Shown: positions 1 through 27,185 of the stretch, piece after piece
Numbering within the stretch: the stretch's first letter is position 1
How the letters are laid out: every line of letters begins with the position of its first letter
Virus record (IMG/VR): IMGVR_UViG_3300026196_000020
Coordinates: 1-28,145 of that record
Origin: a virus
Lineage: Duplodnaviria; Caudoviricetes
DNA length: 28,145 nucleotides
Reading direction: 5' to 3' (one strand)
The notes under the pieces: generated by a model
Seen by the model: the letters and a program-made list of their open reading frames with translations, nothing else
Databases searched by the model: none
What the model was told of the DNA's origin: nothing
Program-made: the position numbers and the translations under genes

Positions 1-1
1 G

Positions 2-109
2 CAGCGCGACCAGGGGCAGAAGCAGGGCAAGCCGAATCCTGCTTTCGATGCAAATAATCCTTTCAGCGACAAGGTTGATTGCGATGATGACCAGGATTTG
101 CCCTTCTGA
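2..109 (+). CDS. ssb: single-stranded DNA-binding protein, C-terminal fragment (truncated by window start)
   Basis: Frame 2 reads QRDQGQKQGKPNPAFDANNPFSDKVDCDDDQDLPF*, the acidic D..PF tip of SSBs; TGATG overlap with the next gene. Confidence 0.7.
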   Translation, partial: QRDQGQKQGKPNPAFDANNPFSDKVDCDDDQDLPF

Positions 110-495
110 TGAAGAGATTCATCTTCCGCCCCGACAACCGCTCGCAGATATTGCAGGTGATTGCCAACTACTTATCAGCGCAGGGTGACGCAGCCCTGCC
201 GCTGGAGGTGGTGGTGAAGCCATACAAGCGCAAGAGGACCGTTGAGCAGAACGATCTATACTGGACGCTTGTTTCAGCGATTGCCAATGAGACAGGGCAT
301 AGTCGAGATGAAATCCATGACTTATGCCGATACCGCTTTTTAGGCATGCGTTCAAAGGAAATAGCAGGCGTGACGGTTGAATATCTGCCGTCAACGACTA
401 AACTAAAGGTAGCGGAAATGTCGGACTACTTCACACAATGCGAGGCATGGGCTGCCGGTATCGGGGTCTATTTGCCGCCAAGAGGGTATGAGTGA
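109..495 (+). CDS. ninB: NinB/Orf-family recombination protein
   Basis: KRTVEQNDLYW and STTKLKVAEMSDY..CEAWAA motifs, 128 aa, next to ssb. Confidence 0.7.
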   Translation: MKRFIFRPDNRSQILQVIANYLSAQGDAALPLEVVVKPYKRKRTVEQNDLYWTLVSAIANETGHSRDEIHDLCRYRFLGMRSKEIAGVTVEYLPSTTKLKVAEMSDYFTQCEAWAAGIGVYLPPRGYE

Positions 496-827
496 TGTTG
501 AATGATTTGTTAGCTTTCCCGTGGTGGGCGCTGGCGCTAATGCTGGCAGGAGCTGCTGCGATCATTTGGTTGGTGGTGTGGCCCATTGCGTGGGTGGCGA
601 TGTACGGGGTTGGGAGCACCATCTTCCATGCACTCACGGTTGATTGGAGTAAAACAAAAACGAAGCCATTGACGCTGGCAAAGTACCTGCTATGGAAGTG
701 GCCGATTGCCGGAATGAAGGAGGCGTTGATTTGGCCAGCAGAAAGCGTTACTTCCGGTACGTGGAAGTGGACACCACTGTTTGGATACAGCAAAAGGGAA
801 AGGCTGATGGAGGTAGATGATGAGTGA
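492..827 (+). CDS. hypothetical membrane protein (probable domesticated cassette gene)
   Basis: Hydrophobic N-terminal segments; GTGA overlap with ninB; N-terminus LNDLLA is encoded by an attC-arm remnant. Confidence 0.6.
   Translation: MMLNDLLAFPWWALALMLAGAAAIIWLVVWPIAWVAMYGVGSTIFHALTVDWSKTKTKPLTLAKYLLWKWPIAGMKEALIWPAESVTSGTWKWTPLFGYSKRERLMEVDDE
497..515 (-). other. attC remnant (R''-spacer-L'' arm only)
   Basis: Minus strand AGCTAAC AAATC ATTCAAC, nearly identical to the arm of the complete site at 24909 (AGATAAC AAATC GTTCAAA). Confidence 0.55.
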
Positions 828-1185
828 ATTGAGAAAGCTGGCGGCGGAACTGGCTGAAGCTGCAAGAACGCATGATGAGACGCATCTATTCGATTCGGAG
901 ATAGTTGCAGTCGAGAAAGCCCTAGCCACCGAGCAGGAGCAAGAGCCTGTGGCGTTTGATGTTCGAGTTGGGCAATTAAAGGCATCTAATGGGACAACGC
1001 ATGTTGTGTCAGTAAATCACCCAATGCGAAGCAAGGATGCCGAGCCTTGGGATTATTCTGGCCACATTGAATTGTGGAATCTCGACGATAAAGAGCAGGC
1101 TGAACAAATGGCCTCAGACGTTCGCAAGGTGCTGAACATGGCTCCACTCTACGTCCACCCACGACAGGAGAACGGTGATGAGTGA
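817..1185 (+). CDS. hypothetical phage protein with EPVA...PLY modules
   Basis: GGAGG RBS; EQEPVAF and PLYVHP motifs typical of lambdoid early accessory proteins. Confidence 0.65.
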   Translation: MMSELRKLAAELAEAARTHDETHLFDSEIVAVEKALATEQEQEPVAFDVRVGQLKASNGTTHVVSVNHPMRSKDAEPWDYSGHIELWNLDDKEQAEQMASDVRKVLNMAPLYVHPRQENGDE

Positions 1186-1447
1186 CTTGAGAAAGAACGT
1201 GACGAAACAAACAGAAAACACTGAAACAGAAACCCGCGCCGACCTATCAGGTAAAAACGAGCGCCTTGTTATGCGCTGCCGCCTTGAAGTGATAAACGAG
1301 ATTCTTGGCGATTCGGTATTTTGGGAAGGGACTAAAGACGAAACCCCAGGCATTCGTAACATCCCGGGACGAATGGTTGCCGAAGCGGTGTTCAGGACCG
1401 GCAAAGAACAAAATATGGGCATGTGGCACGGATTTCCGTGCGCATAA
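1175..1447 (+). CDS. hypothetical protein, cassette-derived
   Basis: AGGAG RBS; stop TAA lies in the core GCATAAC; NERLVMR is encoded by an attC arm. Confidence 0.6.
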   Translation: MMSDLRKNVTKQTENTETETRADLSGKNERLVMRCRLEVINEILGDSVFWEGTKDETPGIRNIPGRMVAEAVFRTGKEQNMGMWHGFPCA

Positions 1448-1448
1448 C
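1268..1448 (-). mobile_element. gene cassette-like unit with truncated attC
   Basis: Perfect 9-bp inverted cores GTTATGCGC (1268-1276) and GCGCATAAC (1440-1448). Confidence 0.55.
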
Positions 1449-1464
1449 GAGAGGGGTAATTTGC

Positions 1465-1743
1465 ATGAATGAATTAGAAGTGATTGTAATTAGCGGGTTC
1501 CTAGCAGTGGCAGTGGCACTAATCATTGCCGTCATTGGTGGTATTGCGAATAGGCTTGAAGAAGATCGTGACGCAGCTCTAGAACGCGTCGCAGGACTGG
1601 AGGAGCAATTAGCTATCGCGTATATGTCCGGCGGCGCGGACATGCGGGAATCTTTACATAAGGAAAAGCAGCGCAATAAGGAACTGGCGTACAAGTTAAA
1701 CAGTGCTACCCGAAGGTTAAAGGAGGTAGATGATGCCAAGTGA
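1465..1743 (+). CDS. hypothetical membrane-anchored coiled-coil protein
   Basis: GAGGGG RBS before ATG 1465; one TM segment then a charged helix. Confidence 0.6.
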   Translation: MNELEVIVISGFLAVAVALIIAVIGGIANRLEEDRDAALERVAGLEEQLAIAYMSGGADMRESLHKEKQRNKELAYKLNSATRRLKEVDDAK

Positions 1744-2353
1744 TACCGAACAGCAGCGAATGAACATTGCGGCAGCGCGTGTGCAAGGTTGGGGTAAAGC
1801 GTTCGCACACTTAATTGTAGATGATGGGACGTTCAACATATTTGATGAGTCCAAACCATACTTAATGCGCGTGGTGAAGAAATTGTTCGATGAGTATGAG
1901 TTGGATATAAAGAAGCAGAACGGACAGTTTCTGTGGAGTGTTCGTTTCGCCGTTGGGCAGGGGTTTTGTGATGGTGTGGCGGACACGCTAGAACAAGCCG
2001 CAGGTGCAGCGGCAGAGTATGTGGCGGATACGCTAGGACAAGGACCGACTCAAGAAGTGTACGAGCAACGCATGGATGAGCTTGAGGCAGACAAGGACGA
2101 CCTGCTCATCCGCATGCAGAAAGACGCTGGAACATTAGATGAGGCATTGCATTGCCTGCGCCACATGGAGAGGCGCAACAAGGATCTGAAGGCGCATGTT
2201 GAGCGGCAGAAGAAAATCATATCTTCACTCCGGCACGCACTCCTAGGCGTACTTCAAGACAACCTGCCGATGGATGCTTGTCGAATGGAGCAGGTGAACA
2301 GAGCGCTAGATGATGACGAAGAAGCCGCCCCTGGCTCCAGCGCAGCGGCATAG
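1730..2353 (+). CDS. hypothetical protein with C-terminal coiled coil
   Basis: AGGAGG RBS, 207 aa, overlaps the previous gene. Confidence 0.65.
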   Translation: MMPSDTEQQRMNIAAARVQGWGKAFAHLIVDDGTFNIFDESKPYLMRVVKKLFDEYELDIKKQNGQFLWSVRFAVGQGFCDGVADTLEQAAGAAAEYVADTLGQGPTQEVYEQRMDELEADKDDLLIRMQKDAGTLDEALHCLRHMERRNKDLKAHVERQKKIISSLRHALLGVLQDNLPMDACRMEQVNRALDDDEEAAPGSSAAA

Positions 2354-2633
2354 ATTGATAAAATCATGTAAGATAAGTAAGTCTGTAATAGATTGCTCAA
2401 GGGAACAAGGAACGTCCGCTGGAGTACACGTTATGCAAAATTTTGTATTTGTTTACATCTTTAACGGTGATTACCGCTGCCTTGGAATTAATGAGGCGCA
2501 GACAATCGGGAAACAATTAATAAAAGAAGGCTGGAAGCACACTGCCACCTTGAACCCTGAAACATGGATAGAATTTATGTTAAATGGCAACGAAACACAG
2601 AGATTTGAGGCTATTGAGTCTATCTCTGCATAA
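2310..2633 (+). CDS. hypothetical cassette protein (start uncertain; in-frame ATG 2433 lies in the core site)
   Basis: AT-rich; GGAG before ATG 2433; stop lies in TGCATAAC. Confidence 0.55.
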   Translation: MMTKKPPLAPAQRHRLIKSCKISKSVIDCSREQGTSAGVHVMQNFVFVYIFNGDYRCLGINEAQTIGKQLIKEGWKHTATLNPETWIEFMLNGNETQRFEAIESISA

Positions 2634-2634
2634 C
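2430..2634 (-). mobile_element. gene cassette-like unit
   Basis: Perfect inverted cores GTTATGCA (2430-2437) and TGCATAAC (2627-2634); minus-strand arm GCATAAC GTGTA CTCCAGCGGAC resembles R''-spacer-L''. Confidence 0.6.
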
Positions 2635-2667
2635 ATATATTACACGTCAGATGTGGCGTATAGTCTG
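2630..2667. repeat. 38-bp direct repeat copy 1, putative attI/dif-like cassette entry site
   Basis: ATAACATATATTACACGTCAGATGTGGCGTATAGTCTG, 37/38 identical to 3413-3450. Confidence 0.9.
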
Positions 2668-2758
2668 GCCGGCTGTTATCCGCTCTTGGTGCGGGATTCA
2701 TCTTATTTTAGCAACCCGATCACTAGCGCATTGAATCACTGAGACAGAGGGAGAAGGA

Positions 2759-2911
2759 ATGACCGTAATAGAGTTGCAAGAAAAGCTGAGCGACCTGCCT
2801 CCAGATGCCACCGTATCTTGTGGCACGAATGGAAATGACGTGATTATTGTTTTCGCCATTCTTGGCTTTGTTGCCTTCGTCATATGGCTGGCACTGAGGG
2901 GTGATGAGTGA
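2759..2911 (+). CDS. small hypothetical membrane protein (50 aa, not in ORF track)
   Basis: GAGGGAG RBS; MTVIELQEKLSDLPPDATV followed by a TM segment; TGATG coupling to the next ORF. Confidence 0.55.
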   Translation: MTVIELQEKLSDLPPDATVSCGTNGNDVIIVFAILGFVAFVIWLALRGDE

Positions 2912-3063
2912 TGAGTGAAGATTACAAAAGAGCGAAAACTCTTGGGCTTACCGATAAATATAGGTTTATCGACGCTTGGAACTCACAGGCAGACGAATCC
3001 AATCAGTGGCACGAACTTGACACCGATGAAGGATTGGGAAAATACAAACATCTTCCTGAGTGA
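2911..3063 (+). CDS. small hypothetical protein (50 aa, probably a truncated chimera)
   Basis: MSEDYKRAKTLGLTDKYRFIDAWNSQADESNQWHELDTDE...; coupled start. Confidence 0.5.
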   Translation: MSEDYKRAKTLGLTDKYRFIDAWNSQADESNQWHELDTDEGLGKYKHLPE

Positions 3064-3088
3064 CTTCGAGGCTACGGATTGGGTTTAC

Positions 3089-3168
3089 GTATAACGAATT
3101 AGCTTAGCGGCTGGCGCTTTCTGCCAGTCCGAGCGACCAAAGGGAGCGCTTATAGCGCCTTATTATAC
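3089..3168 (-). other. attC-like recombination site (80 bp, one core degenerate)
   Basis: Minus strand GTATAAT AAGGC GCTATAAG...CGGACTGGC-loop-GCCAGCCG CTAAGC TAATTC GTTATAC; imperfect hairpin with extrahelical bases; R'' reads AAT instead of AAC. Confidence 0.65.
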
Positions 3169-3185
3169 GTTTTTTGGAGATAGCA

Positions 3186-3416
3186 ATGAAACTCAGAATT
3201 AAGCATGTAAAGAATGTTGGCTACTTTGGGCAGGTGAAAGATGGTTTTCTTTCTGGCTGGAAAACTATTGGCAAACACACAAGCGGTTACGGGCTTTACC
3301 CAAACAATCACGCGGCGCATCCGTTAGAGACTCAGCACGCGGCGCTTGAGAGGTGTAAGTTATATGAACAATGGGCTTACCACAACGCGCAGGAGCCGAC
3401 ATATTTTTACGTATAA
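3186..3416 (+). CDS. hypothetical cassette protein
   Basis: GGAGA RBS; bracketed by TTATACGT (3163-3170) and ACGTATAAC (3409-3417). Confidence 0.65.
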   Translation: MKLRIKHVKNVGYFGQVKDGFLSGWKTIGKHTSGYGLYPNNHAAHPLETQHAALERCKLYEQWAYHNAQEPTYFYV

Positions 3417-3450
3417 CATATATTATACGTCAGATGTGGCGTATAGTCTG
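3413..3450. repeat. 38-bp direct repeat copy 2, putative attI/dif-like site at the convergence of transcription
   Basis: ATAACATATATTATACGTCAGATGTGGCGTATAGTCTG; internal hairpin TATACGTCA-GATG-TGGCGTATA. Confidence 0.9.
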
Positions 3451-3471
3451 AACTGTTCGATTGTCTTGACG

Positions 3472-3843
3472 CTACTTGCCTAGTTTGCCGACCATGTGCG
3501 CAGCAAAGTAAAAACCGATGATAATCATAAACGGCGTAGTCACTACATCTGCCATGTACTGAGCAGCGAACTTTGCAAATGTGGTATGCTGTAGTGCCTG
3601 CGCCGCTAGAATTGCAAGACCCACTGCCATCCACATAAAAGTAACAACAATGGCGATGATGCGCCTAGCAATGTTCTGACCTTGCGTCGCCTTCATCCAC
3701 TCCAGCTTGAAGTCCAGTATCTTCTGATTGGCAACGGACTTTTCCTCATCAGTAAAGAACAGGGCATCAGCCCCCTTCATTACGCCATCAACAATCTTGT
3801 TGGTCGTGTCTCCACCACCGAATAAACTTGCCAGCCATCCCAT
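3472..3843 (-). CDS. holin-like membrane protein (GTA 3TM holin-like)
   Basis: DALFFTDEEK motif, two C-terminal TM helices, directly downstream of the endolysin. Confidence 0.65.
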   Translation of the reverse strand: MGWLASLFGGGDTTNKIVDGVMKGADALFFTDEEKSVANQKILDFKLEWMKATQGQNIARRIIAIVVTFMWMAVGLAILAAQALQHTTFAKFAAQYMADVVTTPFMIIIGFYFAAHMVGKLGK

Positions 3844-3844
3844 A

Positions 3845-4297
3845 TCAGCCTCCCGTACTCATTATTCCATGCTCATAGTGTACGCCATCCTTGGAAAAGA
3901 AAGCGGTCTTGCATTCTCTGCGGTTGCGGCCTTCCTTGTGCGATACATGCACCCATTTACCCTCATAGATCAGTTGGTCGTACTCAATATCGCTTGTAGC
4001 AATCCACTGAGCAACTTCTAAAGGGGTATGTCCGAAAATGTGGAAGTCTGCCGCCTGACCCCTGGTGTGCTGTGATGCCGGATGACTTCCGATAGCTGCA
4101 TTCAATTCCTGCGAGCGGTAGCCGGATGTGATGATGATAGGCTTGGCATAGTGCGCCCTTACTTTCTCCAGCACATTCTTGCACAATGATTCTGCTGCCG
4201 GAAAGAACTGCGGAGGCAAATGGTTATCAATGCACTTCCTTTCCGCTGTCTCGCTTGCTTCAAACTCTGCGATTGTGATGTGTGGTGATAGATGCAT
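3845..4297 (-). CDS. endolysin, peptidase M15 family
   Basis: ITSGYRS..LN, SQH..GQAADF and WVHVS zinc-binding motifs. Confidence 0.85.
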   Translation of the reverse strand: MHLSPHITIAEFEASETAERKCIDNHLPPQFFPAAESLCKNVLEKVRAHYAKPIIITSGYRSQELNAAIGSHPASQHTRGQAADFHIFGHTPLEVAQWIATSDIEYDQLIYEGKWVHVSHKEGRNRRECKTAFFSKDGVHYEHGIMSTGG

Positions 4298-4298
4298 A

Positions 4299-4619
4299 TT
4301 AAAACCCCATCTTTGCGCGTAGCCAGTGGAATGCAGATGGAATAATAAAGGCTAATGCTGTGAAGATAAGACCAATAACTGCCATTACACCAGCCCAAAA
4401 ACTAAGCTGGCTGGCTTTCCATTTTTCCAGTGTGGACACACGTTCTTGAATTTTATCTGCGAACTTCTTGAAATGCGCTATCGCTTCAACTATGTCATTA
4501 GAGATTGATTCATCCCTGCTATCCATAGCGATTATTTTTTCTTTCATAACAGCAACGTCAACGCGAATGTCTGAGATTATTACGTCGGATGATTTATGCT
4601 CATGACCTTCATTTCTCAT
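4299..4619 (-). CDS. coiled-coil protein with C-terminal TM helix, lysis-module membrane protein
   Basis: RVSTLEKWK followed by a hydrophobic helix; upstream of the endolysin. Confidence 0.6.
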   Translation of the reverse strand: MRNEGHEHKSSDVIISDIRVDVAVMKEKIIAMDSRDESISNDIVEAIAHFKKFADKIQERVSTLEKWKASQLSFWAGVMAVIGLIFTALAFIIPSAFHWLRAKMGF

Positions 4620-10902: not shown

Positions 10903-11316
10903 TTACTCCTTTACCCATTTACAATCATTTTTTGTGAGCGACATAATGATCATGTTTCCGTCGGGATAGGCATTATCTATTTCCGCTTGTCTCTTGAATC
11001 CAACCTTTTCGCATAGCCTCAATGAAGGCTCGTTAGCACTTGAAATCATCGCCATGACTACATTCACCTTGGCTTGATTAAAGGCGTAATCGAATATCAT
11101 CCATAGCAGCCCTTTTGTAATCCACCGCTTGCCCTCTCCGGCAGTAGTGATCCGCATAGAGGCTCCGTTCCAGCCGTCATAAACAACGCCACCTGTTATC
11201 TTGCCGTCCTGGACTACACCAAAGCATACAGACTCTAGAGCGATGTATTGACCACCAATCCTGTCCATTACCCATAGGCCAATTTCTTCGTTGGCCTGTG
11301 GAGAGCAGACGATCAA
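10903..11316 (-). CDS. GNAT-fold acetyltransferase-like protein
   Basis: FDYAF...N.PSLRLCEKVGFKR motif; usual podovirus position after the nozzle. Confidence 0.8.
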   Translation of the reverse strand: MIVCSPQANEEIGLWVMDRIGGQYIALESVCFGVVQDGKITGGVVYDGWNGASMRITTAGEGKRWITKGLLWMIFDYAFNQAKVNVVMAMISSANEPSLRLCEKVGFKRQAEIDNAYPDGNMIIMSLTKNDCKWVKE

Positions 11317-12842
11317 AGTACACCGCCCTTTTCTACGGTATAATCAATCGAGTAAACCCTCACATCGGATGCGCTGGAAGATGTTTTGAAGTGCAAACTG
11401 GCCCAATATCCGATACCGAACACCGACTGCCAATCTCGCGCAATCACCAAGTCTCCGCCCCATATCGCTGCATCCCATACGCCTGTATCCCATGTTCCGT
11501 AAACCGTAGGGGAAAAGGTCGGGGTGCTAACAGGAGTTGCCATATCAAAGTCCATATTAACGTCAGCCACCACACCAACAGACGAGTCATATCCGAGAAT
11601 AATCCTAGCCATTGCAATGCGCTTAATCTGCGATTGAGTGCCGAAGTTATTGAAGGCAGGGAGAACGTCAGTAACAATATCAGAACCGTTATCATCCGTT
11701 CCTGTCCATGCTTTATAGACCGTTGAAGCCCCTCCGAAATAGAGTTCATTGGCTAGCACATACCAGCATTTAGCATTCCATCCGGTGAACCTAGACCATG
11801 CCCCTGTAATGGTGTTCATAACATATTGGTAGCTTTTGGTTGTGCTAATAGGAACATTCACAAACATGACATTCTTTTGAGGGAATGTGATAATATCCCA
11901 TCCATAGATGCTGCCATAATTAGCCGTATCGGATGCCATCTGAGGGTTTATCTTGTCCGTGATGGCTAGGTTGGTCTTATCCTTAGTCTGCATTGCATTG
12001 GTCAGAGATACTAAACCTCCGCGAGTCAATACAAGTGTGTCGCCGCCGAACTTGCGCGTAAAGTTTGTCCCAATGGGCGCACCAATGAAAAACACACCCA
12101 CTAGCGTCCATGTTGAAGCTGTAGCAGGGTTTGTTCCTCTATATAAAGCCACTTCCCCTTCGCTGGAGATGAAAGCCAGGTGGTCATCCATGCCGTAGCC
12201 AGCGTCAATAGTCAGTGTGGCTAGCTTGGCAATCTTGCCGCCCCTATGGAATACGGCACCGATATTAAACTCAGTAGCAGAACCAGAGATGGCATCCGTG
12301 GCAAGATACCATGCGCTCATGCTGTTCTGCTCCACGAACCACATACGCCTCATGTGCAGGGCTACATCGTCTAGGGTGGCAGTATCAACACCTGTGATGG
12401 CAGGGGTAGAAACTCCGGTTATGGTGGCCCATGTTGCGCCATCATATAGCAGTAAATTATCAGCACCGTTGACAAAGTGAGCATAAGTGCCGCCAGTGGT
12501 ACTGATGTGCGAATGACGGAACCTTGCAGAAGTCAATCCGGACACAACTGAAGCACCAACAGATCCAGTACTAGTTACATCGTAAATAGCGCACGCTCCG
12601 CTATTGTCAGCCGCCGCAAATAGCTCAGTCGTACCAGAAGCCGATTCGTAGTCCATTAGCGTCTCTACGTTGCCTGTGATGCCTGTAACATGCTCCGAAT
12701 GACCACCACGCAGCTCTAACTCTGTCGGCTGGCAAAAGAAGTTATCCAGAATGACAGCATCGACATCCTTCATCGCAGCCAGTGGATCTCGCTTGTTCCA
12801 CCCACCTATAGGGGCGGCAACCGAATGAACACTAACTGCCAT
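11313..12842 (-). CDS. tail nozzle / head stabilisation protein (P22 gp10 or T7 gp12-like)
   Basis: 509 aa beta-rich protein, APIGGWN start, WD...WD...WG C-terminal motif, follows the adaptor. Confidence 0.75.
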   Translation of the reverse strand: MAVSVHSVAAPIGGWNKRDPLAAMKDVDAVILDNFFCQPTELELRGGHSEHVTGITGNVETLMDYESASGTTELFAAADNSGACAIYDVTSTGSVGASVVSGLTSARFRHSHISTTGGTYAHFVNGADNLLLYDGATWATITGVSTPAITGVDTATLDDVALHMRRMWFVEQNSMSAWYLATDAISGSATEFNIGAVFHRGGKIAKLATLTIDAGYGMDDHLAFISSEGEVALYRGTNPATASTWTLVGVFFIGAPIGTNFTRKFGGDTLVLTRGGLVSLTNAMQTKDKTNLAITDKINPQMASDTANYGSIYGWDIITFPQKNVMFVNVPISTTKSYQYVMNTITGAWSRFTGWNAKCWYVLANELYFGGASTVYKAWTGTDDNGSDIVTDVLPAFNNFGTQSQIKRIAMARIILGYDSSVGVVADVNMDFDMATPVSTPTFSPTVYGTWDTGVWDAAIWGGDLVIARDWQSVFGIGYWASLHFKTSSSASDVRVYSIDYTVEKGGVL

Positions 12843-23781: not shown

Positions 23782-23810
23782 ATTCTAAAGATTTCCGGCG
23801 GATTTGTCAA
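23782..23810 (-). promoter_or_regulatory. sigma70 late promoter (pR'-like)
   Basis: TTGACA-17 bp-TAGAAT. Confidence 0.85.
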
Positions 23811-24328
23811 ACATTACGTTCGACATGCTGCAAAGCACTTTCCAACGCTTCCGCCAGTTCACCTTGTATTTTATCCCGCCACTCTCTCTCTGTTCGGTCT
23901 GCCTTACCCGACAGGGCGACCAATAGCGACGGCTTAACACGTCTTGATTGCCGCCACGAATGCGCCACAAGTTGAAAGTATGGGTATGGGTATCGCTGGC
24001 CTATCCGATCTCTCACCGCCTCAATAGCCCTGAGTCGCGCCTCATTGTCGAAACTGTAGGCTATCTCCAGCATCGGCCAATCAATGCCTGGTATATGCTG
24101 CGCATCGTGTAATACCCTGCTTGCCTCAACCTCATAATCGTCACCGTCGAAATCAGCCAGTGCATGATGCGGTTCGTTATGGATCATCGGCTCAACGTCT
24201 GGAGTGTGCAGCATGCGGAAACACGGAGGGTCAGGGTAGTGTGATCGTGATATGTGCTTGAATGCCCATGACAAGGCAGAGTCAGCGCACCCGAATATAT
24301 CAATCAGCCATGATAGACCTCTATTCAT
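23807..24328 (-). CDS. putative late-gene antiterminator (Q-like by position)
   Basis: GAGGAG RBS; ends at a promoter-terminator pair preceding the terminase genes; HTH-like C-terminus LVALSGKADRTEREWR. Confidence 0.5.
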   Translation of the reverse strand: MNRGLSWLIDIFGCADSALSWAFKHISRSHYPDPPCFRMLHTPDVEPMIHNEPHHALADFDGDDYEVEASRVLHDAQHIPGIDWPMLEIAYSFDNEARLRAIEAVRDRIGQRYPYPYFQLVAHSWRQSRRVKPSLLVALSGKADRTEREWRDKIQGELAEALESALQHVERNV

Positions 24329-24421
24329 CGTATATACTCCTCTACCTCTTCGCCGATAACCTCAAATATGCAATGCCTGTTTTTTATGCAAGTTGGGGGC
24401 TAACTTACATTGCACTTAGGG

Positions 24422-24437
24422 CGTATAATATATGTTA
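24422..24437 (+). other. third copy of the attI/dif-like entry site core
   Basis: CGTATAATATATGTTA, exact reverse complement of 3414-3429. Confidence 0.8.
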
Positions 24438-24926
24438 TCTGCCTAGTGCCTCTAGCGGCCTATCGGCTTTGATATACAGAGGGTGTCTTGGCTTGCCGTA
24501 TTTCGTAGTCCCGAGGCACATCAAGTCATGTGCTGCCAGCAAAGCCATTACCAGCTCATCACGTTGCATGTGTCCTCCGTGCGCTCCCCAAGCTCCCACT
24601 ATCACCCCTGCACCACGCGCCAAATCCATAAGCCACATATCATTGTCTAGCCCTATCGGTTCATCATGCGCCAGCATTGCTTTCGGGTCTGTTGCGCGTA
24701 GTGCGAACAGGTTTGCCATGTATACAGCGCCGTACCCCCAATCCGCCGCAAAACGCTTGCAGCGCCTTATTGTTGGGTCGTCCTCCCGTTCGTCTGCTGT
24801 GGACGGGTTCAGACCAATAAATAACGCATAGGGCGCGTTCTGCTCCCACCTGCGCCAGAGCGCATAGCGGTAGTTTCTGTCTGGAGAAAAAGCCGCCCCA
24901 ACATCGGCAGATAACAAATCGTTCAA
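24435..24926 (-). CDS. DUF1643 family protein (cassette gene)
   Basis: YRY.L.RRW, FIGLNPSTAD...DDPTIRRC, NLFALRATDP, AWG and PRHPLY motifs; AGGAGGT RBS before TTG. Confidence 0.9.
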   Translation of the reverse strand: MNDLLSADVGAAFSPDRNYRYALWRRWEQNAPYALFIGLNPSTADEREDDPTIRRCKRFAADWGYGAVYMANLFALRATDPKAMLAHDEPIGLDNDMWLMDLARGAGVIVGAWGAHGGHMQRDELVMALLAAHDLMCLGTTKYGKPRHPLYIKADRPLEALGR

Positions 24927-24969
24927 AATCGACCTCCTTTCAGTCGGCGCTTTAACTCAGCCGTTAGCT
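24909..24969 (+). other. attC site (61 bp)
   Basis: R'' AGATAAC, spacer AAATC, L'' GTTCAAAA with extra C, TCGAC/GTCGG stem, L' CTTTAAC, spacer TCAGCC, R' GTTAGCT. Confidence 0.85.
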
Positions 24970-25200
24970 GCCAACTTCTTCATGACTTTCAAGTGTTGAT
25001 TTAATCCCGTCATTATCTATTTGGTTAAACCGAATAAATGGAAATATATATTTTAAGAAATCCCCCTCAAACCAATAATATTTCCCGTTCAGTCTTACGC
25101 GTATATCTATCATGTGGCTTTGCGGGGCAATGTCTTTTAAGAGCTGGTTACTACCAAAGTTATCATCGCAGCTAACAATGCTATCAATCGGATTGCTCAT
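24964..25200 (-). CDS. hypothetical cassette protein (AT-rich)
   Basis: GAGGAGG RBS and ATG inside the attC; stop lies in the core GCAGCTAAC. Confidence 0.7.
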   Translation of the reverse strand: MSNPIDSIVSCDDNFGSNQLLKDIAPQSHMIDIRVRLNGKYYWFEGDFLKYIFPFIRFNQIDNDGIKSTLESHEEVGS

Positions 25201-25244
25201 TCGTCGTTCCTCCTCATTCTCAACCGCTTATAGCGGGGTTAGGT
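25170..25244 (+). other. attC site (75 bp)
   Basis: R'' AGCTAAC, AATGC, L'' TATCAATC with extra C, CGG-A-TTG/CAACCG with extra A, L' GCTTATA, GCGGG, R' GTTAGGT. Confidence 0.8.
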
Positions 25245-25257
25245 TGCGTTGTATTGT

Positions 25258-25533
25258 TCAAACCCACCCTCGATCTCGGATCTCGCGCTTTATCTTGCGC
25301 AGTGCTGACTCTCCACCTTTGATGGTGAATCGGACTTTCTCCGTAAACCAGCCCTTATCAACTTCCATCTCAAGCTCAAGACCTAGCACATAGCAGCGAT
25401 TCCGAAGGATGTTCGGAAACTTTGCCCAACGAGGTCCTTCTGCAACACTTCTCAAAGTACCAATTCGTTCTTCCATAACCTTACCCGCAGACGGTGCGCC
25501 AGCGGGGCTTTTTGCATCTTCAGTGTGTTCCAT
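25258..25533 (-). CDS. hypothetical cassette protein
   Basis: GGAG RBS and ATG inside the loop of the attC at 25473-25590. Confidence 0.65.
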   Translation of the reverse strand: MEHTEDAKSPAGAPSAGKVMEERIGTLRSVAEGPRWAKFPNILRNRCYVLGLELEMEVDKGWFTEKVRFTIKGGESALRKIKREIRDRGWV

Positions 25534-25590
25534 GTTTAGTTCTCCGTTTCTGGTGCAGCAGGCGCACCGCTGGTTAATTTCGCGTTATAA
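25473..25590 (+). other. attC-like site (118 bp, L'' degenerate)
   Basis: CCATAAC...AG-A-CGGTGCGCC pairing with GGCGCACCGCT, then GGTTAAT TTCGC GTTATAA. Confidence 0.65.
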
Positions 25591-25592
25591 CG

Positions 25593-25793
25593 CTAATCCC
25601 AATACCCACGGGTGCATGGTTTCCCCCCGTTCAGCGCAATCTGCACGTCTGCAAGAGCCTGCGCATATCCCCCGGCGTATCCCTCGCCACTTAGCCCACG
25701 CGCGAACTTTCCGCCACTTTTGGCTGACGACTCGATCTCCTTTTGAACATTCGTCTGTGCCCTGTCTAATGCTCTCTTTATTCCCGTTGCCAT
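25593..25793 (-). CDS. hypothetical protein (66 aa)
   Basis: GAGGAGG RBS before ATG 25793 (MATGIKRALD...); EGYAGGYAQAL motif. Confidence 0.65.
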   Translation of the reverse strand: MATGIKRALDRAQTNVQKEIESSAKSGGKFARGLSGEGYAGGYAQALADVQIALNGGKPCTRGYWD

Positions 25794-26020: not shown

Positions 26021-26368
26021 CTATTCCCAGCAGCCCGTGCAGCTCCAGCAGTCCGTGCAGCGCGAGCAGCGCGAGCAGTCCGTGCAGTTCGTGCAGTTCG
26101 TGCAGTTCGTGCATTCCGTGCAGCCTGTGCATTCCGTGCATTCCGTGCATTCCGTGCATTCCGTGCATTCCGTGCATTCCGTGCAGCTCCAGCAGCCCAG
26201 GCATTCCGTGCAGAGCGTGCAGTTCCAGCAGCCTAAGTTGTTTTTGTTCTGTTCGACGTAATCAGGACGCTTAACCGCGAACGTTTTGCTTACACCGTTG
26301 ACGCGCTTGTCAGCACGTTCCCGGAATGCTTTAAAGCTCTCAAATATCTTTGTTTCAGCCGTCATCAT
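26021..26368 (-). CDS. cysteine-rich (Cxx)23 repeat protein
   Basis: GGGAG RBS, promoter upstream, 23 Cys at 3-residue spacing. Confidence 0.8.
   Translation of the reverse strand: MMTAETKIFESFKAFRERADKRVNGVSKTFAVKRPDYVEQNKNNLGCWNCTLCTECLGCWSCTECTECTECTECTECTECTGCTECTNCTNCTNCTDCSRCSRCTDCWSCTGCWE
26127..26185. repeat. 9-bp tandem repeat, six perfect copies within a longer degenerate array
   Basis: GTGCATTCC x6, encodes CTE. Confidence 0.95.
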
Positions 26369-27089: not shown

Positions 27090-27184
27090 TGGTACTCGTG
27101 GCTGGACTCGAACCAACATCGCGCCCTAATCTGGGGCATTTTACAGGGTATAAATCTGCCGCTCTACCATTGAGCTACACGAGC
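27090..27184 (-). tRNA. tRNA-Ile (anticodon TAT) with long variable arm, CCA encoded
   Basis: Acceptor GCTCGTG/CACGAGT, D-stem GCTC/GAGC, anticodon loop TT-TAT-AC, T-arm GTTGG-TTCGAGT-CCAGC, discriminator A, 95 nt. Confidence 0.85.
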
Positions 27185-27185
27185 T

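Follow-up and report, generated by a model that had tools for sequence, protein, structure and literature searches.

The window, that is, the whole stretch of 28,145 bp that was analysed, is the entire virus record, a linear contig estimated to be 77% complete. Its minus strand codes for terminase, a P22-like portal, the major head protein, virion proteins and an endolysin, and a plus-strand arm headed by NinB occupies positions 1-3450. An array of three genes separated by imperfect palindromes is situated upstream of the terminase in a group of small minus-strand genes, at a distance of 2.5 kb from the end of the contig. Its left neighbour is a gene of 173 aa (23807-24328), and upstream in transcription stands a resident 66-aa gene (25593..25793, minus strand), which is devoid of cassette ends and whose frame is backed by 14 Stenotrophomonas phage records at 36-39%. 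Further along, at 26021-26368 (minus strand), a 115-aa protein consists of about 20 tandem Cys-x-x repeats encoded by a 9-bp repeat (phrog_15341, E 1e-8), and a tRNA-like sequence is found at about 27090-27185, positions 27142-27178 of which are matched by contigs of other organisms. A promoter-like match on the plus strand (24310-24338) reaches only 9/12, the promoter scan as a whole giving a total at chance level, and no RNA data set is listed as containing the window sequence.

Genes of the array

All three genes of the array are encoded on the bottom strand and the top strands of the attC sites lie on the plus strand, on which the position profile and the covariance model described below agree; none of the genes thus has the canonical placement of a cassette gene, on the top strand and upstream of its attC. 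The first (24435..24926, minus strand, 163 aa) was assigned to DUF1643 in the preliminary description, an assignment borne out by a match to PF07799 (E 1.8e-46). It starts with a TTG inside L'' of attC1, preceded at 5 nt by an AGGAGGT in the attC1 loop, and ends in a TAA formed by the R box on its bottom strand. Gene 2 (24964..25200, minus strand, 78 aa, no assigned function) is built in the same manner, with ATG and GAGGAGG in the attC2 loop and TAA in the R box. The 91-aa gene 3 of probable cassette 3 (25258..25533, minus strand) has its ATG in the attC3 loop, and its TGA stop lies 17 nt before the R box, unlike the R-box TAA stops of genes 1 and 2.

We infer from the sequence that these starts within attC sites are used for translation. 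Protein-family comparisons agree with such predicted starts: the domain of the gene 3 family begins near residue 20, most of the best matches among its 109 relatives (E<=0.001) running from residues 15-33; some of the 23 members of the gene 2 family carry an attC-type N-terminal extension that is absent in others; and close DUF1643 homologs have a common xxLLS start and variable leaders. As to function, the cargo genes are without a match in PADLOC and have only weak matches in PHROG, DUF1643 has no relative in the PDB, and the structure model of gene 2 is of low confidence (pLDDT 63, pTM 0.41). Six more distant DUF1643 loci (42-69%) and 6/7 distinct loci with gene 2 homologs show no attC matches, and these genes therefore occur outside cassettes too.

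attC sites and their folding

The three palindromes had been described as having the anatomy of attC sites, and this is confirmed in the sequence for all three, with model support for attC1 and attC2. In attC1 (24909..24969, top strand plus), R'' ending in TAAC is followed by a 5-nt spacer, L'' with the extra C, L', a 6-nt spacer and R' from G24963; attC2 (25170..25244, top strand plus) has the same anatomy with both spacers of 5 nt and R' from G25238. Each of the two has 6/7 Watson-Crick L-box pairs and an extrahelical base, and the likeness of the arms of attC1 to the aadA attC, also proposed earlier, holds. R'' (..AAC) and R' (GTT..) boxes are present at all three sites. The degenerate L'' reported for attC3 (25473..25590, plus strand) was found again, this site having kept its R boxes and a long inner stem together with only 1-2/7 L-box pairs, which fall short of an attC L box.

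The position profile was trained on 33 canonical attC sites scoring 27.6-54.5, drawn from class 1 integron plasmids, a P1 phage-plasmid and two prophages with captured Vibrio and Shewanella integrons (two of the Shewanella sites coming from a second, integrase-less array of that prophage). With this profile, attC1 scored 38.3 and attC2 36.5, with the top strand on the plus strand only, and no score above 26.0 was reached in 200 dinucleotide shuffles of the window. A covariance model check, which had been suggested earlier, was carried out with a model built here from 24 of the training sites rather than with that of IntegronFinder; it recovered attC1 (26.7 bits, E 3e-4) and attC2 (33.5 bits, E 1e-5), the next match in the window having 11.9 bits, but attC3 was detected neither by this model nor by the profile. 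On the same model, two TJE1 sites validated with IntI1 score 24.0 and 27.3 bits, and attC1 and attC2 stand at or above this level. A crude box-pairing rule alone does not exceed chance (3 matches against a mean of 1.3 in 30 shuffles). A candidate fourth attC, 'site 0', was ruled out (profile left arm -6.6, 2-3/7 L pairs), and an inverted match between 24390-24404 and 24963-24977 (13/15) is equalled in size by several others among 147 pairs. We conclude that attC1 and attC2 are genuine attC-type sites and that attC3 is decayed. The two former are 200 bp apart, CALINs being defined from a threshold of 2 attC sites (PMC9024848), and the search of the 28,145 bp of this incomplete genome for PF00589 tyrosine recombinases gave none, so that no integron integrase is nearby. 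By definition the array is a CALIN; it is neither a complete integron, which would comprise intI, an adjacent attI and Pc and of which intI is absent from the window, nor a set of canonical cassettes.

Folding of the bottom strand, another check proposed in the preliminary description, gave a mixed answer: the recombinogenic hairpin is structurally possible for attC1 and attC2, but it is weak. Their pfold values (1.7e-4 and 4e-3) lie in the low tail of the 33 references (median 0.13, range 2e-8 to 0.72), the TJE1 sites reaching 0.5-0.8, and attC3 has a pfold of <=1e-7. Folding z-scores of -0.08, -1.35 and -1.73 for sites 1-3 are not significant, compared with -3.8 to -7.4 for three reference sites. 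Natural attC sites reach down to a pfold of 1e-7, low values being associated with reduced or no excision, and a cassette flanked by sites with pfold values of 3e-3 and 8e-6 showed no excision (both from the portion of PMC5371416 available). Excision from hairpins this weak would be infrequent, and the array is thus likely to be a slow-changing store of genes and not a fast shuffler.

Cassette ends and their occurrence in other DNA

Read on the plus strand from the TT to the G of the next R', cassette 1 spans 24435..24963 and cassette 2 spans 24964..25238; the perfectly complementary cores claimed for these two units were confirmed, with lengths of 10 and 9 bp. Probable cassette 3 (25239-25584) has cores of 4 bp. 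Complementary cores of at least 9 bp are found in 3/134 GTTA..TAAC pairs spaced 150-700 bp, all three of which bound genes, the third being a left-arm gene at 1268-1448. An 8-bp complementary pair at 11032-11531 lies inside structural genes and is probably due to chance.

That cassettes move with breakpoints at G^TT, as was proposed from the sequence alone, finds natural support for units 1 and 2 in comparisons with independent DNA. Contig L003, which has Mu-like terminase, portal and head genes according to its open reading frames and belongs to an unrelated phage, carries cassette 1 alone, between a gpF-like gene and the next head gene. Its homology to the window is restricted to 24433-24931 (85%) and ends at G^TT on one side, but the other boundary falls within L'', beyond which a different attC body follows (23.3 bits); this body swap is left unexplained by plain R-box recombination. 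Sequencing run X3, which comes from another study, contains a 694-nt contig that aligns with 24433-24952 at 5 differences (a 99% identical unit) and has a different left flank, which ends before cassette 1 like the entry site of L003; a 69-nt contig of the run follows 24923-24967 and then diverges, and could be a sister attC. A 283-nt contig of run X4 passes from an unrelated flank into a match to 24963-25210 that begins with G24963 (4 differences, 98%). The X3 and X4 junctions are at G^TT as loose ends of single contigs with a depth of 2-5, not as spanning joints. The near-identical copies of cassettes 1 and 2, with other neighbours and joined at G^TT, imply recent precise movement. A gene 2 homolog (56%) also lies between inverted attC-like sites in the contig L035. 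Run X2, from a near-identical phage, has no cover over 24587-25229, which is not evidence of cassette loss, no contig joining across the gap. The search for close phage relatives yielded none with an empty site, and the DNA compared showed neither an excised circle nor an empty site.

A putative entry site, attI-like and dif-like

The first cassette of the array begins not at an attC but at a distinct site (24404..24440, plus strand), which consists of a XerC-type arm (24418-24428), a 6-bp centre (24429-24434) and a crossover at G24434^T24435, with a degenerate third box further to the left. The window contains three copies of its 16-mer core, which was absent from all of 100 shuffles. The two other copies, at 2631..2660 and 3414..3443 (both minus strand), each follow the TAA of a plus-strand gene, the former directly after a gene with 8-bp cores (2430-2634) and the latter after a 76-aa gene (3186-3416). 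The arm agrees with two dif XerC arms, taken from a table of PMC2731167, at 9/11 and 8/11 bases, and G^TT falls at the border of the 6-bp centre and the XerD arm. The site is nevertheless not a dif, as XerC arm and centre fit and the XerD arm agrees at only 5/11. The left arm is mirrored by the bases that follow the final R-box G (5/8 pairs, or 8/8 with one base skipped), a pattern that insertion into a palindromic target would leave.

The plus-strand arm holds further mirror-image cassette remnants at 489-515, 1268-1448, 2430-2660 and 3089-3443. These include a half attC at a gene start (489-515), the genes with 8-9-bp complementary cores (1268-1448, 2430-2634), the two further entry-site copies and a decayed attC-like hairpin before the 76-aa gene (3089-3168), whose 7.5 bits are not significant.

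Outside this phage, the exact 17-mer was found at nine viral loci: this genome, L016 and L018, which share the same sequence and a cassette layout, and six others without that layout. In L016 and L018 the entry-site core ends an inverted array; L016 (3100-4020) belongs to an AT-rich phage with long inverted attC-like sites that are missed by the profile. Scans of viral contigs with a loose entry-site pattern, which are dominated by chance, found a same-polarity attC downstream in 0/120 and 0/121 loci. L003 uses another entry site, its own motif occurring twice (1-30 and 4580-4615, one copy just before the terminase gene), so that the motif of the window is not universal.

The 17-mer is matched 61 times in genomes of bacteria and archaea, and 22 of these matches run on into a XerD-type arm (at least 8/11 bases, 3 of them forced by the pattern). 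The combination of the 17-mer and a XerD-type arm in L165, L169, L170, L175, L180, L185, L187-L189 and others resembles the Gemmatimonadota dif site, and in Paenibacillus (L166, L172, L179, L181, L183, L212, L216, L219) a near-perfect palindrome is based on the 17-mer, a mirror arm replacing the XerD-type arm. In a member of the Mariprofundaceae (L198) the motif stands at the head of a canonical array of three attC units (2800-4035), the first of which is a very short cassette; the 8 kb fetched contain no intI, and no IntI over the cut-off is present in the incompletely assembled genome. Across the order to which L198 belongs, the entry motif is present in 8/121 genomes (4 for a backwards control), and at 6/10 motif loci an attC of the same polarity (scores 31.7-38.8) follows downstream within 1.5 kb, whereas no locus has one of opposite polarity there. 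A third box, TATAC/T-N-N6-arm, is seen in 8/10 of these loci and also in the two left-arm copies of the window. IntI exceeds the family cut-off in 47/121 genomes of the order, and a putative attI beside intI has a similar CGTATT/CATATT-N5-6-GTTA layout in 4/10 loci. Stand-alone three-box dif-like sites also start attC arrays in chromosomes of the same order at L356, L361, L363, L364 and L365, and one of its genomes (G037) has three copies of such a site. The entry site has the position and geometry of a candidate attI, the double-stranded L-spacer-R site at which IntI would insert, but in the bacterial loci as fetched it is not beside intI.

How the array may have been assembled

We consider that this is probably an integrase-less, mirror-image array whose cassettes were inserted by a host IntI at an attI-like entry site carried by the phage. 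IntI cleaves the folded bottom strand of attC at the A/C step of AAC, and insertion takes place in a double-stranded site at its R box (PMC4792948, PMC7439510); the enzyme also inserts attC cassettes at dif-like attG sites (bioRxiv 2022.09.11.507474). A circular cassette with its attC bottom strand folded would accordingly be recombined at G^TT by the host enzyme acting in trans, and each new cassette would land at the entry site, where the phage transcript is farthest from its promoter. With ribosome-binding site and start codon provided by the attC and the TAA by the R box, every unit would bring all its translation signals along and would depend on a phage promoter for read-through alone. 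Older acquisitions that have become fixed would account for the decayed and half sites in other parts of the genome, and turnover of the array would be slow. IntI is the likely enzyme for attC1 and attC2 by analogy with phage PH101, where two sites, likewise numbered attC1 and attC2, were recombined by IntI1 (PMC9892861, text and Table S3); against a host IntI speak the low pfold of these two sites, the failed attC3 and the failure of the inverted P12002L attC1 with IntI1 reported in the same source.

It is unlikely that the same cassettes are instead moved by host XerC/XerD or a Xer-like recombinase at the dif-like entry site, as in IMEX with their folded single-stranded attachment sites. Such an enzyme would account for the XerC-type arm and 6-bp centre, for the position of G^TT at the border of the centre and the XerD arm and for the run of the 17-mer into a XerD-type arm in 22/61 genome matches, but the sites carry the extra base typical of IntI substrates and fit the attC model, the XerD arm of this phage is poor (5/11), and, from the sources as available, IntI1 handles the inverted PH101 sites (PMC9892861) and IntI can insert attC cassettes at dif-like attG sites (bioRxiv 2022.09.11.507474). 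Weak folding, the decayed attC3, the half site at 489-515, the attC body swapped in L003 and loop sequences common to attC copies in run X1 could all be the traces of a fossil array, acquired en bloc from a different phage or host through homologous or illegitimate recombination at common attC arms, in which site-specific movement has ended. Against this history, which we judge decidedly unlikely, stand the copies of cassette 1 (99% identical) and cassette 2 (98%) that are joined at G^TT to other neighbours.

A phage-encoded recombinase located in the missing quarter of the genome is conceivable given that the record is linear and 77% complete, that a protein database places two of the genes on a 44,191-bp contig and that three copies of the entry site suggest dedicated use. 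PF00589 proteins are, however, found in 0/4 of the complete published CALIN phages ctTUS972, PH101, TJE1 and P12002L, one of which has the same site family, and, as a weaker argument, in 0/3 partial viral records, and a phage enzyme of this kind appears very unlikely. The idea that chance palindromes or transcription and translation signals simply lie between ordinary phage genes draws on the non-significant z-scores and on the ease with which the crude box rule is satisfied by chance; it is extremely improbable in the face of model scores beyond all shuffles, complementary cores at gene ends and G^TT junctions in independent DNA, and for sites 1 and 2 chance palindromes are refuted by the profile, the covariance model, the cores and these junctions.

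Relation to known systems

The preliminary description took cassette arrays to be normally described in chromosomes and plasmids and not within phage transcription units, and the novelty seen in this has to be abandoned because integrase-less attC clusters of phages have been published: Qi, Rajabal, Ghaly, Tetu and Gillings (2023) report 17 phage CALINs, with IntI1 activity in 5/6 tested sites (PMC9892861). As in the window, these are attC clusters between small genes, with no intI. The text of that paper calls the PH101 and TJE1 arrays typical and, in the portions available, is silent on inversion, on start codons within the sites, on any entry site and on cassettes moving in nature. On re-reading the genome records, all four attC sites of PH101 oppose the GenBank-annotated genes, the array of the circular phage ctTUS972 is inverted, and that of TJE1 is canonical in polarity. 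Inverted phage attC sites are hence already in the published set as far as it is accessible, and two of them are IntI1 substrates. ctTUS972 comes closest to the window, with a P22-like layout, the same site family, inverted polarity and the same design of loop and start at attC1, and the entry motif is absent from it. The PH101 array is inverted too, but its genes start outside the sites; TJE1 differs in that its sites fold far better. In open-licence PMC and bioRxiv, no paper on an inverted layout or on starts within attC was found, and the parts of PMC13323075 and PMC9024848 that were available contain nothing on either.

With bacterial integrons the array has in common R and L boxes, the extra base, the G^TT crossover, complementary cores and an attI-like first position. 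It differs from them in lacking intI and in having genes antisense to the top strand, and expression would come from the far end of the array, leaving the newest cassette promoter-distal. Insertion at attG, which produces SALINs (bioRxiv 10.1101/2022.09.11.507474), likewise takes place at non-attI, dif-like double-stranded sites and explains single cassettes such as that of L003 and small CALINs; attG sites have almost no consensus beyond GWT, whereas the entry site of the window is a conserved, repeated three-box site. The XerC-type arm, the 6-bp centre and the crossover at the centre border are shared with dif/XerCD (PMC2731167) and IMEX attachment sites, from which the window differs by a XerD arm replaced by the cassette core, by three copies per phage and by an attC hairpin as partner. 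The earlier account had missed the inverted genes starting inside the sites, the repeated entry site, the decay of attC3 and the poor folding. What the present analysis adds to the published phage arrays are cassettes that recur almost unchanged in independent data, with junctions at G^TT, and an entry site that is conserved and repeated.

Significance for phage biology

We see an even chance that phages own an integrase-free integron platform, made up of a conserved three-box attI-like site, a host IntI and a phage-specific pool of mirror-image cassettes. Surprise at such arrays is limited, because attC clusters in phages have already been published. Translation signals in attC have so far been shown for synthetic coding attC sites (PMC7439510, in the part available), and the window would mean that natural attC sites can hold them as well. 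A further consequence would be wrong assignments of phage genes to cassettes in integron surveys, and integrase-less attC clusters may persist because they are served in trans at stand-alone entry sites. If the platform is real, mirror-image cassettes that would be silent in a normal host integron would allow unrelated phages to swap single genes through a common pool, providing a precise route for single-gene mosaicism between unrelated phages.
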